The position numbers and the translations under genes were made by a program. The notes under the pieces are model-generated. The model searched no databases. It was given only the letters and a program-made list of their open reading frames with translations, and had not been told where the DNA came from. From Actinomycetota bacterium (GTDB taxonomy: Bacteria > Actinomycetota > JAHEXW01 > JAGVPG01), in the NCBI GenBank assembly GCA_020052375.1, contig JAGVPG010000021.1:17969-81968 (forward strand): DNA of 64,000 nt, in the 5' to 3' direction. Below, one piece after another: positions 17,903-60,956 of this stretch; position 1 is the first letter of the stretch, and every line of letters starts with the position of its first letter.

Positions 17903-17993
17903 CAATCCAGCTTAACGAGAATGTAACTTAACTCCTCACTCCATACTCAATTCCTGTAAACTATTATCAATACTCATTTAAGAAGGAGGCTAT

Positions 17994-23035: not shown

Positions 23036-23111
23036 CGGGCGGTGGCGCAGCTTGGTTTAGCGCACCGGACTGGGGGTCCGGAGGTCGCGGGTTCGAATCC
23101 CGCCCGCCCGA
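23036..23111 (+). tRNA. tRNA-Pro (anticodon GGG)
   Basis: Acceptor CGGGCGG/CCGCCCG, D-stem GCGC/GCGC, anticodon stem CCGGA/TCCGG with loop CTGGGGG, T-arm GCGGG-TTCGAAT-CCCGC; CCA encoded at 23112-23114. Confidence 0.92.
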
Positions 23112-29619: not shown

Positions 29620-29775
29620 TATCGGCCTTCGGGGCAGGGTGAGATTCCCGACCGGCGGTAAAGTCTTTTTAACAAGACTTAAGCCCGCGAGCTTAGATCT
29701 TTAAGCAATAGATCAAAAGCAGATCCGGTGAGATGCCGGAGCCGACAGTAAAAGTCTGGATGGGAGAGGGCGGTT
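29620..29775 (+). promoter_or_regulatory. FMN riboswitch (RFN element)
   Basis: CTTCGGGGCAGGGTGAGATTCCCGACCGGCGGTAAAG, AGCCCGCGAGC, GATCCGGTGAGATGCCGGAGCCGACAGTAAAAGTCTGGATGGGAGAGG; upstream of ribD. Confidence 0.93.
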
Positions 29776-53572: not shown

Positions 53573-54085
53573 TTACTTCTCTTCCAACAGCATCCTATGG
53601 TCGTCACAGAATGTAATGGGCTTAGCATCCGTCTCTTCGGCGTTCTCGGAGAACCGCATGACGCAGTCATGCCTGTCGCAGTGAAGCAGTCCAAAGGTAT
53701 GTCCGATCTCATGGACGGCTTCTTTTCTGACGCGCTCTATAAAGTTAAGCATATCGCCGGTTCTTAGACGGTAAAGAGAGATGACGGCGTACACCCCGTT
53801 GACCTGGGCCTGTCCGAAGATATAATTGCGTCCTCGGACGTAAAGGTCGTCATTTGTAACAGAAAGGACCTTCCTGCCCTCCCCTACCTCAAGACGCGTT
53901 ATACGTCTAAGGATCGTAGGGGCGCTGAACTGGTTACGGCGGGCGCTGAAGGCATGTAAGGGCATGTCAAGAGGTGATAAGACTTCGATGTCACAGTGAA
54001 ATGAAGATGTGAGCACGTCTTCAAGAGAACGGATGATCATCGGATCGATCTCTCCGAAGGGCTGTATCGAGATCACGTCTGGCAT
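53573..54085 (-). CDS. archaemetzincin-like (M54) zinc metalloprotease
   Basis: HEIGHTFGLLHCDRHDCVM..FCDDH, i.e. HExxHxxGx3Cx4CxM with the final CxxC reading CDDH. Confidence 0.8.
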   Translation of the reverse strand: MPDVISIQPFGEIDPMIIRSLEDVLTSSFHCDIEVLSPLDMPLHAFSARRNQFSAPTILRRITRLEVGEGRKVLSVTNDDLYVRGRNYIFGQAQVNGVYAVISLYRLRTGDMLNFIERVRKEAVHEIGHTFGLLHCDRHDCVMRFSENAEETDAKPITFCDDHRMLLEEK

Positions 54086-54105
54086 AGAGGGCTCTTATGA
54101 GGGGT

Positions 54106-55098
54106 TCATACCAGGTTCTGCAGTTTATCGAGTTGGTCCCTGGTGCCGATGACGACCAGCTTATCTCCGCCATGGATCTTCGTACTTTTGCTTAAGTTGG
54201 TCTCGAACCTGCCGGAAGAGCGTTGGATCGACAGTATATAGGCACCACTAAGCTTTCTGACCTCGGACTCTTTTATGGTCTTGCCGGCTACTCCGGAATC
54301 ATGGCCGATCTTTATCTCCTGCAACTGGAATTCAAGCTCTTCGCCATGCATCACAGTATCAAGGAAGTCACTTACGACGGGCTTCAATATCATGGAAGCG
54401 ATCCTCCTGCCGCCGAGGCTGTAGGGGCTGACTACACGGTCGGCGCCGGCGCGCTTCAATTTTGACTCGCTTCCCTCCAGATTTGCTCTGGCGATGATAA
54501 AAAGATTCGGATTAAGACCGCGGGCCGATAAGGTCACATAGACGTTATCCTCGTCCCCGTCGACTACGGAGACCAATCCCTTGGCTCTCTCTATCCCGGC
54601 GTCTTTCAGGACATTGTCATCCGACGCGTTACCCTGTATATACAGTACTTCCTCCGTGTCCAGATACTTCTTGACGTCAGGGTTGCTGTCCAGTACGACA
54701 AAAGGAGCGCCGGTGCGCTTGAACTCGCGCGCGATCTGCTCCCCTACCCTGCCGAAGCCGCATATTATATAGTGGTCTTTTAGTGCCGATATCTTTCTTT
54801 TCATCATCTGTCCTCCTAGAATGTCACTAAAATAGCCTTCGACCATGAATTCGACGATGCTTCCTAGAGTATACGCTGAAGCGCTCACACCGCCGACGAT
54901 TATGAACAGTGTAAATACCTTTCCGGAACCGGAAAGCGGATGGACTTCTCGAAAACCGACGGTGGTTATGGTTATGATCGTCATGTAAAGCGAATCAAGC
55001 GGCGCCCAGCCTTCGATCAGCGTATAACCTATGGTACCGGTTATGATGACGGTAAAGAGAAGCCCTACGGCGATCCTGAGGTGTCTTAATAAGCTCAA
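54106..55098 (-). CDS. two-TM potassium-channel-like protein with RCK (TrkA-N/TrkA-C) domains
   Basis: Pore TITTVGFRE; Rossmann IICGFGRVG; TTG start after AGAGGAG. Confidence 0.8.
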   Translation of the reverse strand: MSLLRHLRIAVGLLFTVIITGTIGYTLIEGWAPLDSLYMTIITITTVGFREVHPLSGSGKVFTLFIIVGGVSASAYTLGSIVEFMVEGYFSDILGGQMMKRKISALKDHYIICGFGRVGEQIAREFKRTGAPFVVLDSNPDVKKYLDTEEVLYIQGNASDDNVLKDAGIERAKGLVSVVDGDEDNVYVTLSARGLNPNLFIIARANLEGSESKLKRAGADRVVSPYSLGGRRIASMILKPVVSDFLDTVMHGEELEFQLQEIKIGHDSGVAGKTIKESEVRKLSGAYILSIQRSSGRFETNLSKSTKIHGGDKLVVIGTRDQLDKLQNLV

Positions 55099-55118: not shown

Positions 55119-55847
55119 TCACTTAAGCCCAAGGACCTTATGTATCTGCGGCATCACGTACACATCCTTGAGTCTGGCGCATGCCAGATGATAAAGATCC
55201 AATATTGTATCTGAACTGGGACTTGCGGTAATTCTACCATACGGAGTCACCGGCTGGATATAGAAAGGGATACCCGGATCGACGGACTCTACCAATTCTG
55301 CGGTTTTCCTGAACTCGTTTCGATCCGAGTCTTCGCGTATGACCACCTTCACGTAAACGCGTTTTATGTAGGATATCTTCAGGAACTCAAGGTTCTTATC
55401 CAATGATGTTCCGTCTTTTCCAGCGTCTTTTGGAAGCTTGATATCCATGCTGATAAAGTCCACATACGGGATGACCTTTTCAAGCTCGCCGGGTAGCGTT
55501 CCATTCGTTTCCAATAGTATGGGCAGGCAAAAAGCGTTTTCTCTCCGGTTTGTCATAAGCAGGTCACGGATGAAGTCCGCCTGGAGCAACGGCTCACCGC
55601 CGGTCAGGCAAAGCATCCTGCCGGGACAATCGTCATTGCCGGCCAGCTCCTTGATAAGTGAATCGACGGTATAGACTCTGCCGCCGTTTCTATCACGTGA
55701 AGCGGGCGTATCGCAATATGTGCAGGCAAGGTTGCATCCGGAGAAACGGACGAATCTATGCATCTGCCCGGCAAAAAGGCCTTCGCCCTGTATGCTTGAG
55801 AAGATCTCCGATATTCCGGCTTTTAAGAGTCGCCTGGATTCATTCAA
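55119..55847 (-). CDS. queE: 7-carboxy-7-deazaguanine synthase (radical SAM)
   Basis: EIFSSIQGEGLFAG, SGCNLACTYCDT, LTGGEPL. Confidence 0.85.
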   Translation of the reverse strand: MNESRRLLKAGISEIFSSIQGEGLFAGQMHRFVRFSGCNLACTYCDTPASRDRNGGRVYTVDSLIKELAGNDDCPGRMLCLTGGEPLLQADFIRDLLMTNRRENAFCLPILLETNGTLPGELEKVIPYVDFISMDIKLPKDAGKDGTSLDKNLEFLKISYIKRVYVKVVIREDSDRNEFRKTAELVESVDPGIPFYIQPVTPYGRITASPSSDTILDLYHLACARLKDVYVMPQIHKVLGLK

Positions 55848-56421
55848 TGGGCCTGACCTTGTGACATGCTTTTTGAATATCAGCTGATTCTTTTTTAAAA
55901 CGCTCGAGTACTATCTCACCCAGGTGGACGGGATCTATGTTCAGCTCCATAAGGCCTGAGGCCTTGACAGGAGCTCCTTCCGGATCTACGTTCACGGCTG
56001 CATGCAGCATCACGGATGCCGGAGAACATGTCGCGATCGAGACCGTCAGCTTCCCTTCCTTTAAAGACCGTAAATACAGGTCGTCACCTTCCCTGGCGAT
56101 GCGCAAGCGGTTCTTACCCGCATCACCCGAGTCTTCTATCGACTCCTTGATGATGCATATCAAAAGCCTCTGAAGTAGAACGCCTGTCATAAGATCCATG
56201 TCAAAGAACTCACCGATGAAGTGAAGCATGGACTTTGCCCGGATGAAAGAGCCTGCATCGCGGTCGTCCAGATCGACCAGGTCTTCATTTCGAACATGCG
56301 CGGGGCCTAGAAAGGCGACAAGGTTGTCGTCATCAAGCCCGTATTCATCATATGACCAGCGGGAACGCAGTTGCGTACCGTCATAAGTGACCTGCTTATC
56401 GGTAACGAACATGGTCTCCAT
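55840..56421 (-). CDS. conserved hypothetical protein embedded in the que operon (possibly DUF366-like)
   Basis: ATG 56421 in a TGATG overlap with the queC stop; 8-nt overlap with the queE start; family call is from memory only. Confidence 0.45.
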   Translation of the reverse strand: METMFVTDKQVTYDGTQLRSRWSYDEYGLDDDNLVAFLGPAHVRNEDLVDLDDRDAGSFIRAKSMLHFIGEFFDMDLMTGVLLQRLLICIIKESIEDSGDAGKNRLRIAREGDDLYLRSLKEGKLTVSIATCSPASVMLHAAVNVDPEGAPVKASGLMELNIDPVHLGEIVLERFKKESADIQKACHKVRPIE

Positions 56422-57110
56422 CAGATCGCGATCCTCAAAGAAGGTACGAGTTCCGGATATGTTTCTTGAAATGCCCGCTTCAAACGGCTGCAGGGTTCGC
56501 AAGCGCCGCACATAAGATCGCCGCCTTCATAGCAGGACCAGATAAGTCCAAGCGGGACAGCAAGCTCGACAGCTTTCTTAGCGATTTCGGTCTTCGCCAT
56601 ATCGATCGTATATCCGGTCAGCGTTACAGCGTTTAGAGTCGAGTATCTGAACATGCCGGTAGCCGCTTCCGTAAAGGCCCTTGTGTTGTCCGGAAAGGTC
56701 AAGCCCTCTTCTGCGTTAAAACCTCCCACCACCAGTCCTGCCCCCTTCATCTCGGCAAAGCTCGCAGATATATTTACGAATACACCGTTTCTATTGGGCA
56801 CCCAGACAGATGCGGCGGATGCCGAGGTCTTAACGGTATCGTCCAGATCCTTTATGTCCAGCTTAGGTATAGTTTTTGAGGTGTCTGACAAGGCGGAATC
56901 CGAGTCATTGAACCATGGCAGGTCGATCGTCTTGTGGGCGGTCTTATAGTGCGAGGCGAGTTCTTTGGAAGAGTTTATCTCGCGCGAAGCGGACCGCTGG
57001 CCGTAGTCGAATGTCAAAGCTAAAACGACATCTGTCTTATCTGCGGCAATAGCCAGATTGACCGCGGAATCGAGCCCTCCCGACAGCATGACGATACTTT
57101 TTTCTTTGAT
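56421..57110 (-). CDS. queC: 7-cyano-7-deazaguanine synthase
   Basis: LSGGLDS PP-loop, C-terminal CGACEPC; 5' end extended to ATC 57110 (the ORF track gives ATG 57089). Confidence 0.85.
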   Translation of the reverse strand: MKEKSIVMLSGGLDSAVNLAIAADKTDVVLALTFDYGQRSASREINSSKELASHYKTAHKTIDLPWFNDSDSALSDTSKTIPKLDIKDLDDTVKTSASAASVWVPNRNGVFVNISASFAEMKGAGLVVGGFNAEEGLTFPDNTRAFTEAATGMFRYSTLNAVTLTGYTIDMAKTEIAKKAVELAVPLGLIWSCYEGGDLMCGACEPCSRLKRAFQETYPELVPSLRIAI

Positions 57111-57117
57111 CTTAGAC

Positions 57118-57501
57118 TCACTCCTTGAAATATGAGATACACGCAGTCGATGATTCCCAGATGCTTACTTTCTTAACGTCGATCCCGGACTCCAGATTAG
57201 CTTTGGACAAAGCTTTCTGCAGTTCATGGTATAGGTATTTAGCCAGGTTCTCGGCTGTCGGAGTGATCTTGTCAAAAGGCGGCACCTCGTTCAAGTGGTG
57301 ATGATCGAACCGGTCGACCAGGGTCCGGGTCTTTGCCTTCAGCTCCTTGAAATCGTATACCAGCCCCACTTTGTCCAGTCTCTCCCCTTCGATGACGACG
57401 TCGACCTTGAAGCTATGGCCGTGAAGACGCGCGCATTCGCCGGGATAACCGGTCAAGCTGTGGGCAGCGTCGAAATGCGTCTCGATCTTCAATTCATACA
57501 T
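57118..57501 (-). CDS. queD: 6-carboxy-5,6,7,8-tetrahydropterin synthase
   Basis: FDAAHSL, CARLHGHSFKV, HHHLNE. Confidence 0.9.
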   Translation of the reverse strand: MYELKIETHFDAAHSLTGYPGECARLHGHSFKVDVVIEGERLDKVGLVYDFKELKAKTRTLVDRFDHHHLNEVPPFDKITPTAENLAKYLYHELQKALSKANLESGIDVKKVSIWESSTACISYFKE

Positions 57502-57503
57502 AT

Positions 57504-58511
57504 TTAGACTCCCCTCTTCCCCTTATCCCTTAAAGTCTCTAAGAAAGCTTCCATTCTGACCTTCGTCCGGCTGTCCAGGCGACCGGGCTTGTCTCCCTCT
57601 ATCCTCAGTACCGGTAGGTCTAAAGTCCCTCTGACAACAGGGTCTTCAAGCTGATGAAAACAGAAACTCTGGACGTAGTGGACGATCCCGTCCACCCTTC
57701 TCTTCCCGACCTCTTCTTTTATACGCTTCAACCTAGTCAAGATGCCGTAGGGGTATGTGTATTCCAGATACTGAGCGACAAGGCCGTCGGCCTCATAGGG
57801 CATGCTGAACTGGTGCTGGACTTCATTATACACCACGCGCGCGCCCTGTTCTTCAAGAAAGTCATAGATATCGCTGAAGATGGGCGGGACTCCCATATAG
57901 GCAAGACGTATCTCAGGAGGGGATGCTGTCCTTGATCCTATCCTGTCAAGCATATCGGACAACATCGTCTCGAACTTCTCGGGCTCTCCGTTAAGATCGC
58001 TTGAAGCGACGAGCCATTGATGGTTCTCATATCCGGTCGCTTTATCTTCCTGCCACGTCAGACGGTCGAGCTCCGCCAGTTTAGCCCGGATGGTCTTAAA
58101 TTGTAAGCGCATATCCTCTGCTTTTTCAATGTCGGTATCCAGACGGCTGCAGAATCGCCTGATCTCGCGATTCAGATCTTCGACATCCCTGTTCAAAGGG
58201 TAAGAGAATGTGATAACAGGGACGCCTTCATAGATGAAATTCTCGATCAAAGCGTAATTGTTGGCGCAGTCACCCTGTGTCATGCCGATAACGGCGGAAA
58301 GGCCGTCCATTTCATGCACGATGGAGTAGATACCCTTTATCCAGGCGCAGTAATTACGGGGAATACCTTTTGACTCGGCCGATTCGGCTAAACGAAAGGG
58401 ATCATCGGATGATATGAACAGGTTGTTAAGGTCGATCGGGACGTAACCGGCGCCATAGACGACTTCACAGGGCACCGTCGAGGTTATGCCGATTTTTCCC
58501 TTGCTCTTCAT
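57504..58511 (-). CDS. 2-hydroxyacyl-CoA dehydratase (HGD-D/BcrB-like) family protein
   Basis: GITSTVPCEV, NYCAWIKG, QGDCANN, YVQSFCFHQ; 335 aa; no activator ATPase nearby. Confidence 0.65.
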   Translation of the reverse strand: MKSKGKIGITSTVPCEVVYGAGYVPIDLNNLFISSDDPFRLAESAESKGIPRNYCAWIKGIYSIVHEMDGLSAVIGMTQGDCANNYALIENFIYEGVPVITFSYPLNRDVEDLNREIRRFCSRLDTDIEKAEDMRLQFKTIRAKLAELDRLTWQEDKATGYENHQWLVASSDLNGEPEKFETMLSDMLDRIGSRTASPPEIRLAYMGVPPIFSDIYDFLEEQGARVVYNEVQHQFSMPYEADGLVAQYLEYTYPYGILTRLKRIKEEVGKRRVDGIVHYVQSFCFHQLEDPVVRGTLDLPVLRIEGDKPGRLDSRTKVRMEAFLETLRDKGKRGV

Positions 58512-58526
58512 GGGTGATCGAGGACC

Positions 58527-58997
58527 TTATGCTTCGAAGTCTTCAGGGTTTATTTCTTCAAGAAAATCTCTGAATCTATCGACCTCTTCCTCGATCGTCT
58601 CAAGGACTATGCTGGCTTCGTCCAGGATCTTTTCTTCCGTGTAGACGGGGGTGTCGCACCTTACAGCCAGAGCGATCGCGTCGGAAGGCCTGGAGCTTAT
58701 CTGATGCGCTTTCTTATCGTTCAATGTGATCGTAGCGTAGAAAGTGCCGTCCACGAGATCGTCTATGACGACTTTTTCAGGCGTCACTTTCAACTCATCC
58801 AGCATGTTCTTAAGCAGGTCGTGAGTCATAGGCCTAGCCGTTTCCACCTGCTGCAGATGAAGAGCGATGGCTATCGCCTCTGAGACGCCTATCCATATGG
58901 GCAAGATCCTTTCGCCATCCTTCTCCCTGAGAAGCACGATAGGTTGGTTTGTTGGTAGTTCTATGCGTACACCGACGATCTCCATTAGTATCATCAC
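58527..58997 (-). CDS. bifunctional nuclease (BFN/DUF151) family protein
   Basis: MEIVGVRIELPTNQPIVLLRE, ILPIWIGVSEAIAIA, RPMTHDL. Confidence 0.8.
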   Translation of the reverse strand: MMILMEIVGVRIELPTNQPIVLLREKDGERILPIWIGVSEAIAIALHLQQVETARPMTHDLLKNMLDELKVTPEKVVIDDLVDGTFYATITLNDKKAHQISSRPSDAIALAVRCDTPVYTEEKILDEASIVLETIEEEVDRFRDFLEEINPEDFEA

Positions 58998-59019
58998 AGG
59001 TCACCTTGTTTATATTCTA

Positions 59020-59661
59020 TCACACGTCGGGCTGTCGATATACCTGCATAACGGCTATGACTTCGCTGTCCGTCGTCTGGTCGAACCTCTCGTAAAACTG
59101 GCCGACCGCATAGAAGATCGAGGGGGCGTGCGCGACTACGATATCATCGGCTTTATTCTTAAGTCTTTGTAACGTATCAGGGGGTCCTACGGGGACGGCA
59201 AGGACCAGATGAGCCGGTTGAAGTTTCTTTACGAACTCAAGCGCGGCTTCCGTAGTGGCGCCGGTGGCTACACCGTCATCGACCACGATCGCCGTCTTTC
59301 CTTTTACTACGAGAGGCCCCAGACCTTCGCGGTAGACAGCGGTACGGCGTTCTATCTCCTTGATTTCGTTCTCTATAGTCATTTCAAGGTATTCGTCAGA
59401 AACGGCAAGGTGGGTGATCAGGTTTTTATCGAGGACCTGGATCCCACCCGGAGCGATCGCTCCGAGGGCCAGTTCCGGATTGCCGGGAGCTCCGATCTTT
59501 CTGGGAACGACCAGATCAAGTGGTGCGCCAAGCGCTCTTGCTACCTCGTGAGCAACGATAACACCGCCGCGCGGTATGCCGATGACGACTACGTCGCTAC
59601 CCTTATAGGAAATAAGCAGTTCCGCTAGGTAACGGCCTGCGTCGCGTCTGTCTCTAAACAT
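59020..59661 (-). CDS. phosphoribosyltransferase family protein
   Basis: MFRDRRDAGRYLAELL, IPRGGV, AIVVDDGVATGAT. Confidence 0.75.
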   Translation of the reverse strand: MFRDRRDAGRYLAELLISYKGSDVVVIGIPRGGVIVAHEVARALGAPLDLVVPRKIGAPGNPELALGAIAPGGIQVLDKNLITHLAVSDEYLEMTIENEIKEIERRTAVYREGLGPLVVKGKTAIVVDDGVATGATTEAALEFVKKLQPAHLVLAVPVGPPDTLQRLKNKADDIVVAHAPSIFYAVGQFYERFDQTTDSEVIAVMQVYRQPDV

Positions 59662-60956
59662 AGTTCTCCTTTAAGAGAATAGGGAGACGCCGCGGTTACT
59701 TTTATATCGACGAACCTGTCAATAAGAGATCTGTCGCCTTTGAAATTGACTACTTTGTTGGTCCGGGTCCGCCCTGCCATGAAGTCATTATCGCGACGGC
59801 TTCTACCTTCGACCAGCAACTCGACGGTGTTGCCGACAAGTTCGCCGTTCTTTTCATTGCATATCTCATTCTGTCTTTCAACCAGCAGGTCGAAACGATC
59901 GTGTTTTACGATAGCCGGTACATCATCTTTAAGGGTAGCCGATCTTGTTCCCGGACGCGGCGAATATATGAACAAAAAAGCCTGGTCAAAACGGACACTA
60001 TCGACTATATCCATAGTCATTTCGAAATCCTCATCGGTCTCTCCGGGAAACCCGACGATTATGTCAGTGGAAACGGCTGAACCGGGCACTCTATCCCTGA
60101 TGCGTTCAATCAGCTCAATATATTGCGATCTCGTATAACCGCGGTTCATCGCGCTAAGCATAGTGTCTGAACCGGACTGGAACGGTAGATGCAGATACTC
60201 GCAGATATGTTTTCCACCGGCGATGGCATCAAGCATCTCATCCTCGAGATCTTTTGGATGGGATGTGACGAATCTTATCCTATCCAGGCCTTCAACGTCG
60301 TCGAGTTTCTGTAGAAGGTCGACGAACAGGCCTTTTTTCCCGAGATCGCTGCCGTAAGTGTTCACGTTCTGCCCAAGCAGGGTGACTTCTTTAACACCAT
60401 CAGACACGAGGTCGTTCACCTCATGGATTATATCGGGAAGCTGGCGGCTGACCTCTACGCCTCTTACATGCGGCACTATACAGTAGGAACAGTAATTGCT
60501 ACAGCCCCTGATTATGGGCACCCATGCACGGGCTCTATGACGCCGCAGCGTAGGTAATCCTTCCGGGATGCGACGGTGGCCGTCGATGTCGCATAGGGCT
60601 TTACCGTGTTCGATGGCCTCGTCTATCAGCGCGGGCAGGTTCTGAAAATTCCTCGTGCCGAAGACTACGTCGATATATGGAAATGACTTAAGAAGCTTTG
60701 ATCCGGCTCGTTCGGCTACACAACCGCCGACTGCGATCAAGCGATCGCCCGATCGCCTCCAGTTCTTAAGTGACCTGATGTTGCCGTATAGACGCTCCTC
60801 AGCGCGAGCTCGAACGCTGCACGTATTGAAGATGACGATATCAGCCGTTGAAACGGAAGCGACCGGTTCGTGACCGGCGCTTGTCATGAGGCCGCTTATC
60901 ATCTCCGAGTCGGCCTTGTTCATCTGGCAACCGAATGTCCTGATGTAGTAACGCAT
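59625..60956 (-). CDS. miaB: tRNA (N6-isopentenyl adenosine-37-C2)-methylthiotransferase
   Basis: YIRTFGCQMNKADSE, RGCSNYCSYC, TRAM C-terminus. Confidence 0.85.
   Translation of the reverse strand: MRYYIRTFGCQMNKADSEMISGLMTSAGHEPVASVSTADIVIFNTCSVRARAEERLYGNIRSLKNWRRSGDRLIAVGGCVAERAGSKLLKSFPYIDVVFGTRNFQNLPALIDEAIEHGKALCDIDGHRRIPEGLPTLRRHRARAWVPIIRGCSNYCSYCIVPHVRGVEVSRQLPDIIHEVNDLVSDGVKEVTLLGQNVNTYGSDLGKKGLFVDLLQKLDDVEGLDRIRFVTSHPKDLEDEMLDAIAGGKHICEYLHLPFQSGSDTMLSAMNRGYTRSQYIELIERIRDRVPGSAVSTDIIVGFPGETDEDFEMTMDIVDSVRFDQAFLFIYSPRPGTRSATLKDDVPAIVKHDRFDLLVERQNEICNEKNGELVGNTVELLVEGRSRRDNDFMAGRTRTNKVVNFKGDRSLIDRFVDIKVTAASPYSLKGELCLETDATQAVT

Follow-up and report, generated by a model that had tools for sequence, protein, structure and literature searches.

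A queuosine precursor operon in an Actinomycetota bacterium with a candidate non-orthologous replacement for QueF

Five adjacent genes of an Actinomycetota bacterium can be read as an operon of housekeeping function that makes the queuosine precursor. The first of them encodes a protein of the HGD-D family, which is a candidate for a non-orthologous, ATP-driven [4Fe-4S] enzyme that reduces preQ0 in place of QueF. This reading is given a probability of about 0.6, because the gene is present in every genome examined that has QueC and no QueF, and in no genome that has QueF. Phyletic complementarity and gene clustering point to the conversion of preQ0 to preQ1, with the substrate suggested on genomic grounds. 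If the reading is true, the protein would be a new enzyme for a step for which the QueF family is the sole known nitrile-to-amine reductase according to a review of November 2026 (PMC13740343). No published description of an HGD-D-like replacement for QueF was found in the literature.

The genes lie in a window of 64,000 nt, which is the whole stretch of DNA that was analysed (forward-strand positions 17,969 to 81,968 of contig JAGVPG010000021.1, assembly GCA_020052375.1). The source is placed by GTDB in Bacteria; Actinomycetota; JAHEXW01; JAGVPG01, and its genome is small (1.64 Mb) and 95% complete. All five genes are on the minus strand and are transcribed in the order HGD-D-like gene, queD, queC, DUF366 gene, queE (Table 1).

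Table 1. Genes of the block and the neighbouring phosphoribosyltransferase-family gene, with positions in the window
Feature	Position	Strand	Properties
HGD-D-like protein	57504..58511	-	335 aa, single subunit; PF06050 1.4e-32
queD, 6-carboxytetrahydropterin synthase	57118..57501	-	127 aa; PF01242 (PTPS/QueD) 5e-40
queC, 7-cyano-7-deazaguanine synthase	56421..57110	-	PF06508 1.8e-46; TIGR00364
DUF366 protein	55840..56421	-	193 aa; PF04017 3.3e-53
queE, 7-carboxy-7-deazaguanine synthase, radical SAM	55119..55847	-	242 aa, TTG start; PF04055 1e-15
Type I phosphoribosyltransferase (PRTase)-family gene	59020-59661	-	PF00156 3.5e-18

A first-pass annotation, made from the sequence, had described this block as joined by overlaps or gaps of no more than 8 nt, and its open reading frames and junctions proved to be as described. 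The HGD-D-like gene is separated from queD by 2 nt, the stop of queC overlaps the start of the DUF366 gene as TGATG, and the DUF366 gene overlaps queE by 8 nt. The same annotation had suggested DUF366 (PF04017) and HGD-D (PF06050) for the two extra proteins, and a Pfam search returned both. It had also taken these genes for unexplained companions of queCDE and proposed a test of co-occurrence across genomes. The test was strongly positive, and the two companions are genuine, conserved and uncharacterised.

The remaining members are familiar enzymes. QueD and QueC score above the cut-offs of their NCBIfam equivalogs (TIGR03367, 107.7 bits against 89.25; TIGR00364, 156 bits against 150). QueE matches Fer4_12 in addition to the radical SAM family and has the CX3CX2C motif; its top NCBIfam matches are QueE models, with scores under their cut-offs, and its position in the block is identical in all related clusters. 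The first canonical start of queC is the ATG at 57089. The genome-level Pfam match begins at position 57101, and the in-frame codons upstream of the ATG read I-K-E-K-S-I-V. Because the conserved N-terminus thus begins upstream of this ATG, the true start is probably the ATC at 57110-57108.

The gene arrangement is not a matter of chance. In all 25 genomes of the source's phylum that carry the HGD-D-like gene, it is part of the que cluster and the same block recurs (two of these genomes lack DUF366), and the block and the linkage are also found in Armatimonadota. The canonical preQ1 operon, queCDEF of Bacillus subtilis, likewise joins queC, queD and queE to the gene that serves the final soluble step. 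In the window, the HGD-D-like gene takes the place of queF, and DUF366 stands between queC and queE. A preQ1 riboswitch was not found in the 64 kb.

FolE, QueD, QueE and QueC convert GTP to preQ0, which QueF reduces to preQ1. After insertion by Tgt, QueA and QueH take preQ1-tRNA to Q-tRNA. The statement that the window holds no tgt, queF, queA or queG/H is correct. A search of the whole genome, which the first-pass annotation had advised, located tgt and queA on another contig and did not find queF. Tgt is of the bacterial position-34 type (TIGR00430 equivalog, 478 bits) and QueA is an equivalog match of 490 bits; queH (3.8e-60) lies on the same other contig, directly upstream of queA. The gene folE is present outside the five-gene block, and QueG is absent from the genome. 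The QueF profile PF14489 gave no match in the 95%-complete genome, nor did E. coli QueF in a tblastn search of it. The pathway of the source is therefore complete except for QueF.

The relation between the two genes was surveyed in 492 genomes of two phyla, 251 from the phylum of the source and 241 from the phylum of Dendrosporobacter and Carboxydothermus. A strong QueC match occurs in 116 genomes, 50 of which have QueF and 66 the HGD-D-like ortholog; no genome has the two genes together, and no genome lacks both. This holds within each phylum, with 24 genomes carrying only the HGD-D-like gene and 25 only QueF among 49 in the first (Fisher 1.6e-14), 42 and 25 among 67 in the second (Fisher 6e-19), and no overall overlap between the two genes in the second phylum (0 of 53 against 54, P = 2e-7), values that all ignore shared ancestry. 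In the source's phylum the trait is fixed at the family level, and the independent switches are therefore far fewer than the genomes.

The HGD-D-like gene is absent from all 90 genomes with QueF. It is present in 12 of the 376 genomes without a strong QueC match, which might be explained by salvage of preQ0, as for the 40 genomes that have QueF and no QueC. All 25 carriers in the source's phylum have QueA. Two genomes of that phylum with weak QueC-like matches, G067 (1e-23) and G186 (2e-11), have neither QueF nor the HGD-D-like gene. A cultured example is Carboxydothermus hydrogenoformans, which has queD-queC-DUF366-queE-folE, tgt-queA, queH and the HGD-D-like gene with an activator, and from which QueF is absent.

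The 335-aa protein is a member of the HGD-D superfamily. Its match to PF06050 (114 bits, cut-off 28.4) covers profile positions 2-342 of 342 and is its only Pfam match. The first-pass annotation had pointed to conserved cysteines at NYCAW, GDCAN and SFCFH; these are C55, C82 and C284, which are invariant in three alignments of 25, 17 and 44 orthologs and are the sole invariant cysteines in the first and last of these. They are putative ligands of a [4Fe-4S] cluster. From the structure model (pLDDT 93.9), the protein is predicted to fold like the ATP-driven low-potential Fe-S enzymes HadBC, DCCP and benzoyl-CoA reductase. The nearest folds found by Foldseek are HadB/C (3O3M), DCCP (6ENO) and BzdNO/MbdON, and the top 20 are all members of the HGD-D family.

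Several known systems share this architecture. HadBC and HgdAB, with their activators HadI and HgdC, have the same Pfam domain and fold (3O3M, TMq 0.76-0.78) and likewise have three cysteines available to bind a [4Fe-4S] cluster in which one Fe site stays open; in many genomes a gene for a BcrAD_BadFG activator adjoins the HGD-D-like gene. They differ in being alpha/beta heterodimers, whereas the HGD-D-like protein is a single subunit of 325-335 aa with 15-18% identity to them. The dehydratases also perform a redox-neutral dehydration, in contrast to the net four-electron reduction proposed here. A 2-hydroxyacyl-CoA dehydratase proper was rejected on the grounds that there is a single gene, no alpha/beta pair and no acyl-CoA gene context. 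The source genome has one HGD-D-like match at E<=1e-8, the gene is single everywhere, and no CoA-transferase or acyl-CoA genes recur near it.

Class I benzoyl-CoA reductases (BzdNO, MbdON; 8S02, 9G87; TMq 0.75-0.80) are members of this superfamily and rely on the same activator principle, in which stoichiometric, ATP-coupled electron injection drives a difficult reduction. Unlike the HGD-D-like protein, they are heterotetramers that act on aromatic CoA thioesters, and identity is about 16%. The nearest solved relative is DCCP with DCCP-R of C. hydrogenoformans (6ENO, 7YYL; sequence E 3e-6, fold TMq 0.78). DCCP is encoded by one type of gene and depends on ATP to reduce small unsaturated molecules; it is known to reduce acetylene and to bind cyanide (PMC7317905). 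The HGD-D-like protein is about 90 residues shorter, and C. hydrogenoformans has separate genes for both. Assignment as a double-cubane cluster protein (NF040772) was rejected, because the score of 43.7 bits falls short of the cut-off of 350 and three cysteines are invariant, not six.

QueF itself (EC 1.7.1.13; PF14489) catalyzes the reaction that is proposed for the HGD-D-like protein, at the same position in the pathway, and its distribution follows the same logic: it accompanies QueC or occurs where preQ0 is presumably salvaged. It differs as a T-fold, NADPH-dependent enzyme with a Cys thioimidate, whereas the HGD-D-like protein would use an Fe-S cluster and an ATPase activator, and there is no relationship between them in either sequence or fold. 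Homology to QueF was rejected, with PF06050 the only family matched. The proposed likeness is one of functional analogy, not of family membership.

The HGD-D-like enzyme and its activator might instead take part in an unrelated reaction with a housekeeping role in strict anaerobes. Their mutual exclusion with QueF would in that case stem from lineage and lifestyle, and preQ1 would come from salvage or from another, as yet undescribed reductase. Such a reaction would fit the neighbourhoods outside the source's phylum, where 78 of the 80 best loci have no que gene near the HGD-D-like gene. The gene and its activator are found there in the murI...rph-rdgB region, between murI and rph, and an MBL-fold gene is often present as well. 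It would also fit the 12 carriers without QueC, and the survey counts ignore kinship. It is nevertheless judged unlikely, since none of the 66 genomes with QueC and without QueF lacks the gene, which is otherwise confined to the few genomes counted above and to none with QueF. In addition, the gene lies within que operons in three phyla, some of them without DUF366, and these genomes carry QueA, which needs preQ1-tRNA. Two Bacillota genomes (G367, G380) have the gene beside canonical queC/D/E; in Bacillota it is generally elsewhere in the genome, and the complementarity with QueF still holds. To our knowledge, no bacterium uses QueC-made preQ0 without reducing it.

As a replacement for QueF, the HGD-D-like protein would probably be a homodimer, with C55, C82 and C284 as the ligands of a single [4Fe-4S] cluster in which one Fe stays open. 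An ATPase of the BcrAD/BadFG type would feed it low-potential electrons from ferredoxin or flavodoxin, with consumption of ATP. Four steps, each adding one electron and one proton, would then turn the nitrile of preQ0 into the aminomethyl group of preQ1. We know of no precedent for a four-electron reduction in the HGD-D family, whose chemistry is mainly one-electron ketyl chemistry.

An earlier remark that no activator ATPase is in sight is true of the 64-kb window, and clusters of the window's own order lack one, but it does not hold beyond. In 8 genomes of the source's phylum, a dedicated BcrAD_BadFG ATPase is encoded between the HGD-D-like gene and queD; in 54 of the 80 best loci of other phyla, such an ATPase is encoded directly downstream of the HGD-D-like gene. 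The source genome has two such genes elsewhere that may supply the activator, an orphan at C12:8506-9258 and a copy on contig C7 that is paired with other genes. The orphan has 30-41% identity to dedicated activators and is no nearer to them than to other paralogs.

The substrate would be the free base preQ0 or, less likely, preQ0 already inserted into tRNA by Tgt. The genomic data fit both forms alike. In archaea, 7-deazaguanine is tailored on the tRNA, and preQ0 can serve as a substrate of bacterial Tgt in vitro. Reduction on tRNA is nonetheless quite improbable: the 12 carriers without QueC parallel the genomes with QueF and without QueC, which fits a salvaged free base, and the enzyme is a compact single domain with no recognisable RNA-binding module.

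The first-pass annotation had further proposed that the cluster makes something other than, or besides, the tRNA precursor, perhaps a toyocamycin-like nucleoside, with the upstream PRTase-family gene supplying one step. That gene is in the same apparent transcription unit, and two cluster genes have no assigned role. The idea of another deazapurine is not supported and has very little probability. A nuclease-domain gene intervenes between the PRTase gene and the cluster. The PRTase gene adjoins the cluster only in the window's own order (L001, L033, L035, L039, L044), where it belongs to a miaB-PRT-(BFN) synteny. The clusters of other families and phyla lack it; its adjacency is order-level synteny only. 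A toyocamycin-type cluster was rejected, with no PRTase and tailoring genes conserved alongside queCDE. No genes for further tailoring, for export or for resistance are repeatedly found near the cluster. The small genome has a complete Tgt/QueA/QueH branch, and the HGD-D-like gene is complementary to QueF.

A last alternative, that DUF366 substitutes for QueF or that the HGD-D-like enzyme stands in for the epoxyqueuosine reductase QueG/QueH, could appeal to the absence of DUF366 from the QueF-containing families of the source's phylum (overlap 0 of 23) and to the lack of QueG in the source genome, but it is largely refuted: DUF366 occurs in the same genome as QueF in two cases (G327 and a genome of Latescibacterota), is missing from five genomes without QueF (G004, G197, G251, G367, G380), is found in archaea that need preQ0 alone, and has a ligase fold with no conserved Cys or redox motif, while QueH is encoded next to queA in the source genome and in C. 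hydrogenoformans.

DUF366 most likely acts at or before preQ0. This weakly supported reading is suggested because it travels with a distinct QueC subtype in bacteria, because it occurs together with QueF in two genomes (G252, G327), and because it is present in archaea. The QueCs linked to it have 42-51% identity to that of the window, and canonical QueCs 24-35%. A control search found it in methanogens, and it occurs in archaea that need only preQ0. A role as a QueF substitute was rejected on its occurrence together with QueF and in methanogens, and on its being missing from several genomes with the HGD-D-like gene. No paper mentioning the family was found, and we know of no substrate for any DUF366 protein.

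Membership of the family is clear from a full-length PF04017 match and from the fold of PH0223 (PDB 2DDZ; 3.5e-28, 34% identity, Foldseek TM 0.9). After 2DDZ, the Foldseek matches of the structure model (pLDDT 93.7) include many BPL/LplA structures (probability 1.0, E 5e-7 to 4e-5, TMq 0.5-0.64). The model thus indicates a minimal domain with a biotin/lipoate-protein-ligase-like fold. By sequence profile the protein does not belong to BPL_LplA_LipB, which gave no Pfam match at E<=0.01 and left DUF366 as the sole one, and the profile-to-PDB match to Aquifex BPL is marginal (E 0.026). In this marginal alignment, the BPL/LplA motifs KWPND, KK-x-SG and GINVN appear to be kept as R110-G112-D113-D114, K124..S128 and N144. 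R110, G112, D113, D114, K124 and N144 are invariant, and K124 is presumably the catalytic Lys, by comparison with BirA K183. Unlike these ligases, DUF366 lacks an acceptor-protein domain and shows no trace of the GRGRxGR loop at the N-terminus. A tentative candidate role is that DUF366 binds or adenylates the carboxylate of 7-carboxy-7-deazaguanine (CDG) for its QueC.

Tgt and QueA, for which the window itself has no genes, are encoded elsewhere in its genome; QueF is not. The first-pass annotation had noted the lack of all three, and that observation stands for the whole genome only for queF. The assembly (1.64 Mb in 35 contigs, 95%-complete, with the window at C6:17969-81968) carries on contig C1 genes for QueA (equivalog, 490 bits) and for a Tgt of the bacterial, position-34 type (TIGR00430, 478 bits). 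The epoxyqueuosine reductase QueH is found immediately upstream of queA (CC[AGS]PC motif search, then Pfam, 3.8e-60), and FolE is on contig C3. QueG had no match in the genome by tblastn, and QueF had none with the Pfam profile or by tblastn with E. coli QueF. Because Tgt, QueA, QueH, FolE and queD, queE and queC are present and QueF is absent, the genome covers the route from GTP to Q-tRNA with a single gap, the conversion of preQ0 to preQ1.

The best-supported explanation, with a probability of roughly 0.6, is that the HGD-D-like protein of the que operon, together with a BcrAD/BadFG-type activator, acts as a non-orthologous QueF. The operon consists of five tightly packed minus-strand genes at 55119-58511, whose ORFs and junctions are as first described. 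The Pfam families guessed earlier for its two odd members (PF06050 and PF04017) were recovered in a profile search (see table), and an NCBIfam search gave nothing specific for either the HGD-D-like or the DUF366 protein.

Genes of the que operon in the window and of the corresponding system in Carboxydothermus hydrogenoformans
Feature	Position	Strand	Remarks
HGD-D-like gene	57504-58511	minus	335 aa; first gene; Pfam HGD-D 1.4e-32
queD	57118-57501	minus	2-nt gap after HGD-D-like gene; Pfam PTPS/QueD; NCBIfam equivalog
queC	ORF from ATG 57089 to 56421	minus	Pfam QueC; NCBIfam equivalog
DUF366 gene	55840-56421	minus	Start is the A of the queC TGA; Pfam DUF366 3.3e-53
queE	55119-55847	minus	TTG start; 8-nt overlap with DUF366 gene; Pfam Radical_SAM
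C. hydrogenoformans HGD-D-like and activator pair	272.9-274.6 kb
C. hydrogenoformans queD-queC-DUF366-queE-folE	840.4-843.3 kb
C. hydrogenoformans tgt and queA	1.354-1.356 Mb
C. hydrogenoformans queH	1.359 Mb

The upstream neighbours on the minus strand are genes for a protein with a bifunctional-nuclease domain and for a PRTase-family protein, and miaB, the start of the PRTase gene overlapping the end of miaB by 37 nt. Downstream of the operon are an RCK K+ channel gene and an archaemetzincin gene. These flanks (53573-55098 and 58527-60956) are syntenic with the cluster only inside the window's own order (loci L001, L033, L035, L039 and L044). The que operon appears to be a portion of a long minus-strand unit, and promoter and terminator scans over 53-64 kb gave background levels. 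Rfam at gathering thresholds gave no match at the operon, neither a preQ1 riboswitch nor any different element; its only matches in the whole 64-kb window are an FMN riboswitch (29621-29775, 116 bits) and one tRNA gene (23036-23111).

Evidence for the proposed replacement of QueF is provided by phyletic distribution. Among 251 genomes drawn evenly from the window's own phylum, QueA was found in 172, QueC in 51 (49 of them strong, E<=1e-39), QueF in 42 (36 above cut-off), DUF366 in 23 and an HGD-D-like ortholog (43-50% identity) in 25, all of which have QueA. Of the strong-QueC genomes, 24 carry the HGD-D-like gene without QueF and 25 carry QueF without the HGD-D-like gene; no genome has both or lacks both (Fisher 1.6e-14). 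Since two QueC+ genomes that lack both DUF366 and QueF, G197 and G004, carry the HGD-D-like gene, this gene matches the absence of QueF more closely than DUF366. A second survey covered 241 genomes of the phylum to which Dendrosporobacter is assigned (here Bacillota). The ortholog occurred in 53 and QueF in 54, with an overlap of zero (P = 2e-7), and the 67 QueC+ genomes comprised 42 with the HGD-D-like gene and 25 with QueF, none with both and none with neither (Fisher 6e-19). In this co-occurrence check, which the first-pass annotation had named, the HGD-D-like gene is complementary to QueF without exception in 116 QueC+ genomes of two phyla.

All 25 own-phylum genomes with the HGD-D-like gene have it inside a que cluster. 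The usual orders are HGD-D-like, queD, queC, DUF366, queE, or HGD-D-like, queD, DUF366, queE with queC elsewhere. Two clusters are without DUF366: HGD-D-like, queD, queE in G197, and HGD-D-like, activator, queD, queC, queE in G004. Outside the phylum the family is large, with more than 4300 proteins at E<1e-20 and more than 560 species genomes matched. Proteins of about 50% identity occur in Pelotomaculum, Carboxydothermus, Sporomusa, Desulforudis, Geobacteraceae, Latescibacterota, Armatimonadota and Planctomycetota. At the best 80 species loci outside the phylum the activator is immediately downstream in 54, and que genes are alongside only at an Armatimonadota locus. In Bacillota the pair mostly has murI on one side and rph-rdgB on the other, often with an MBL-fold gene next after the pair, and in two genomes of the second survey (G367 and G380) the pair immediately adjoins canonical queC/D/E. 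As que genes are rarely neighbours outside the window's phylum, the physical linkage is lineage-specific, which makes the phyletic test in the second phylum an independent one.

The main rival explanation takes the complementarity with QueF for a lineage effect and gives the HGD-D-like enzyme some other function. The trait is fixed inside families, so the independent events are far fewer than the count of genomes. However, this explanation is weakened by the lack of any exception among the 116 QueC+ genomes and by the embedding of the gene in que operons in three phyla. The proposal of the first-pass annotation that the cluster makes a different deazapurine product with the help of the PRTase is not sustained, as the PRTase gene adjoins only in the window's order and belongs to the miaB synteny.

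A further caveat to the own-phylum survey comes from two genomes, G067 (1e-23) and G186 (2e-11), that have weak QueC-family matches and lack QueF, DUF366 and the HGD-D-like gene; such matches could represent paralogs of QueC that serve a different function.

BcrAD_BadFG proteins are the ATPases that activate HGD-D enzymes. In eight own-phylum genomes a gene of 253-266 aa separates the HGD-D-like gene from the que genes; all four that were profile-scanned belong to this family (PF01869, 1.7e-24 to 6.5e-36), and the remaining four were assigned by similarity to them. No activator was found in the que clusters of the window's own order. The window's genome has two BcrAD_BadFG ATPases, on contigs C12 and C7. 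The former, an orphan of 250 aa (C12:8506-9258), adjoins fdhE and a formate dehydrogenase operon and, as no HGD-D partner gene lies beside it, may be the activator of the que-cluster enzyme.

The C12 ATPase gene ends the fdhE/formate-dehydrogenase operon (C12:8506-14719), in which the catalytic subunit is broken at an in-frame stop that may be selenocysteine. On C7 there is a second archerase-type system (C7:45399-48431), a 390-aa ATPase followed by two DUF2229/HGD-D-tail proteins, adjoining clpC-like and restriction-type genes. Selenocysteine was also considered for the HGD-D-like orthologs and rejected: comparison of ORF coordinates showed the flags of one internal TGA to be the terminal stop within the alignment.

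Only three cysteines (C55, C82 and C284) are invariant in the HGD-D-like orthologs. This is the pattern of [4Fe-4S] dehydratase subunits, unlike the six-cysteine pattern of the double-cubane protein, whose NCBIfam model (cut-off 350) gave a score of 43.7 bits. The predicted structure is confident (pLDDT 93.9) and resembles HadB/C, DCCP and subunits of benzoyl-CoA and 3-methylbenzoyl-CoA reductases (TMq 0.75-0.80, 15-23% identity). In HadB/C, DCCP and benzoyl-CoA-type reductases, low-potential electrons are supplied by an ATP-hydrolysing ASKHA partner. By analogy, the HGD-D-like protein would reduce the preQ0 nitrile on the same principle, acting on either the free base or tRNA-bound preQ0. Such an enzyme would belong to the superfamily of HGD-D, benzoyl-CoA reductase and DCCP, and would be unrelated to QueF in evolution. 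DCCP is described as reducing acetylene, with inhibition by cyanide, and has no assigned physiological substrate (PMC7317905). The idea that the HGD-D-like enzyme stands in for QueG/QueH was rejected, QueH itself being present.

The distribution of DUF366 points to preQ0 synthesis and not to preQ0 reduction. Its gene always adjoins queC or sits between queD and queE, and the QueC linked to it is 42-51% identical to that of the window (24-35% for canonical QueC). A Latescibacterota genome and one surveyed genome (G327) have both DUF366 and QueF, and DUF366 was rejected as a QueF substitute on this ground. DUF366 is also present in methanogens, used as a control, which require preQ0 only. The order queD-queC-DUF366-queE was found in 19 Bacillota genomes. 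A role as a GTP cyclohydrolase substitute was ruled out, FolE being present in the window's genome and beside the C. hydrogenoformans cluster. At the second-phylum loci L144-L183, QueC of the 42-51% type is always followed by DUF366 and the canonical type is never found with it; Pfam QueC scores are consistently lower for the linked type.

DUF366 is homologous to PH0223 (PDB 2DDZ, E 3.5e-28), which is also the best match, at TM 0.9, to its predicted structure (pLDDT 93.7). After 2DDZ, the closest folds are those of the catalytic domains of biotin and lipoate protein ligases, with dozens of matches (E 5e-7 to 4e-5, probability 1.0). The family profile matches Aquifex biotin protein ligase marginally (E 0.026), in an alignment that places KWPND, KK-x-SG and GINVN on the invariant DUF366 residues R110/G112/D113/D114, K124/S128 and N144. 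The ortholog alignment contains no conserved cysteine. DUF366 is regarded as an accessory of a QueC subtype, and the mechanism proposed for it must be called doubtful. As a minimal domain of the biotin/lipoate-ligase type, it might adenylate and so activate 7-carboxy-7-deazaguanine, the carboxylic acid of the pathway and thus the obvious candidate ligand, for the distinct QueC subtype in many bacteria and archaea.

Queuosine biosynthesis is at present taken as fully solved. A November 2026 review counts QueF as the sole family known so far to reduce a nitrile to an amine (PMC13740343), and comparative-genomic surveys of queuosine metabolism classify genomes by QueF only (PMC11130926, PMC6593275). 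In the freely accessible literature that was searched, no paper was found that places DUF366 (PF04017, COG2454) in a que context or links queuosine to HGD-D, DCCP or activase/archerase enzymes. The chances are about even for the joint proposal of an unrelated second nitrile reductase, a single-subunit [4Fe-4S] enzyme with an ATP-hydrolysing activator converting preQ0 to preQ1, and of DUF366 as a fifth preQ0 enzyme. QueF would then be replaced in a large share of anaerobes, including Bacillota (Carboxydothermus, Pelotomaculum, Sporomusa, Desulforudis), the window's phylum, Geobacteraceae, Armatimonadota and Latescibacterota.

If true, this would close a pathway hole in hundreds of anaerobic species and change microbiome calls of queuosine-precursor makers and scavengers, in which QueC+/QueF- genomes are now scored incomplete. 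Within the ATP-driven Fe-S archerases, an orphan branch would gain its first physiological substrate, biocatalytic nitrile reduction a new scaffold, and preQ0 and archaeosine synthesis an unrecognised component in DUF366. The prediction is directly testable because the cultured C. hydrogenoformans (Z-2901, CP000141.1; genome G304 of the survey) has the whole arrangement (see table). QueF was not found there by a whole-genome search or by a second search of the first 2.0 of 2.4 Mb.

Directly 3' of the HGD-D-like/activator pair, Bacillota and Desulfobacterota encode on the same strand an MBL-fold protein of about 250 aa (L059:8743-9471 and 31 of the 80 loci L064-L143). This protein is a possible third component, absent from the window's cluster. 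It is not counted in the system here because own-phylum clusters contain no homolog and the window's genome only a weak one (contig C8, 26% identity). Other MBL-fold genes flank que clusters in one own-phylum family and in a Geothermincolia MAG.

The start of queC in the window deserves a comment. Upstream of ATG 57089 the in-frame codons read I-K-E-K-S-I-V, the conserved first strand before SGGLDS (57087-57126 region, minus strand), and the Pfam QueC match from the genome-level search starts at 57101, also upstream of that ATG. Judged from the sequence, the true start is probably a non-canonical ATC at 57110-57108.
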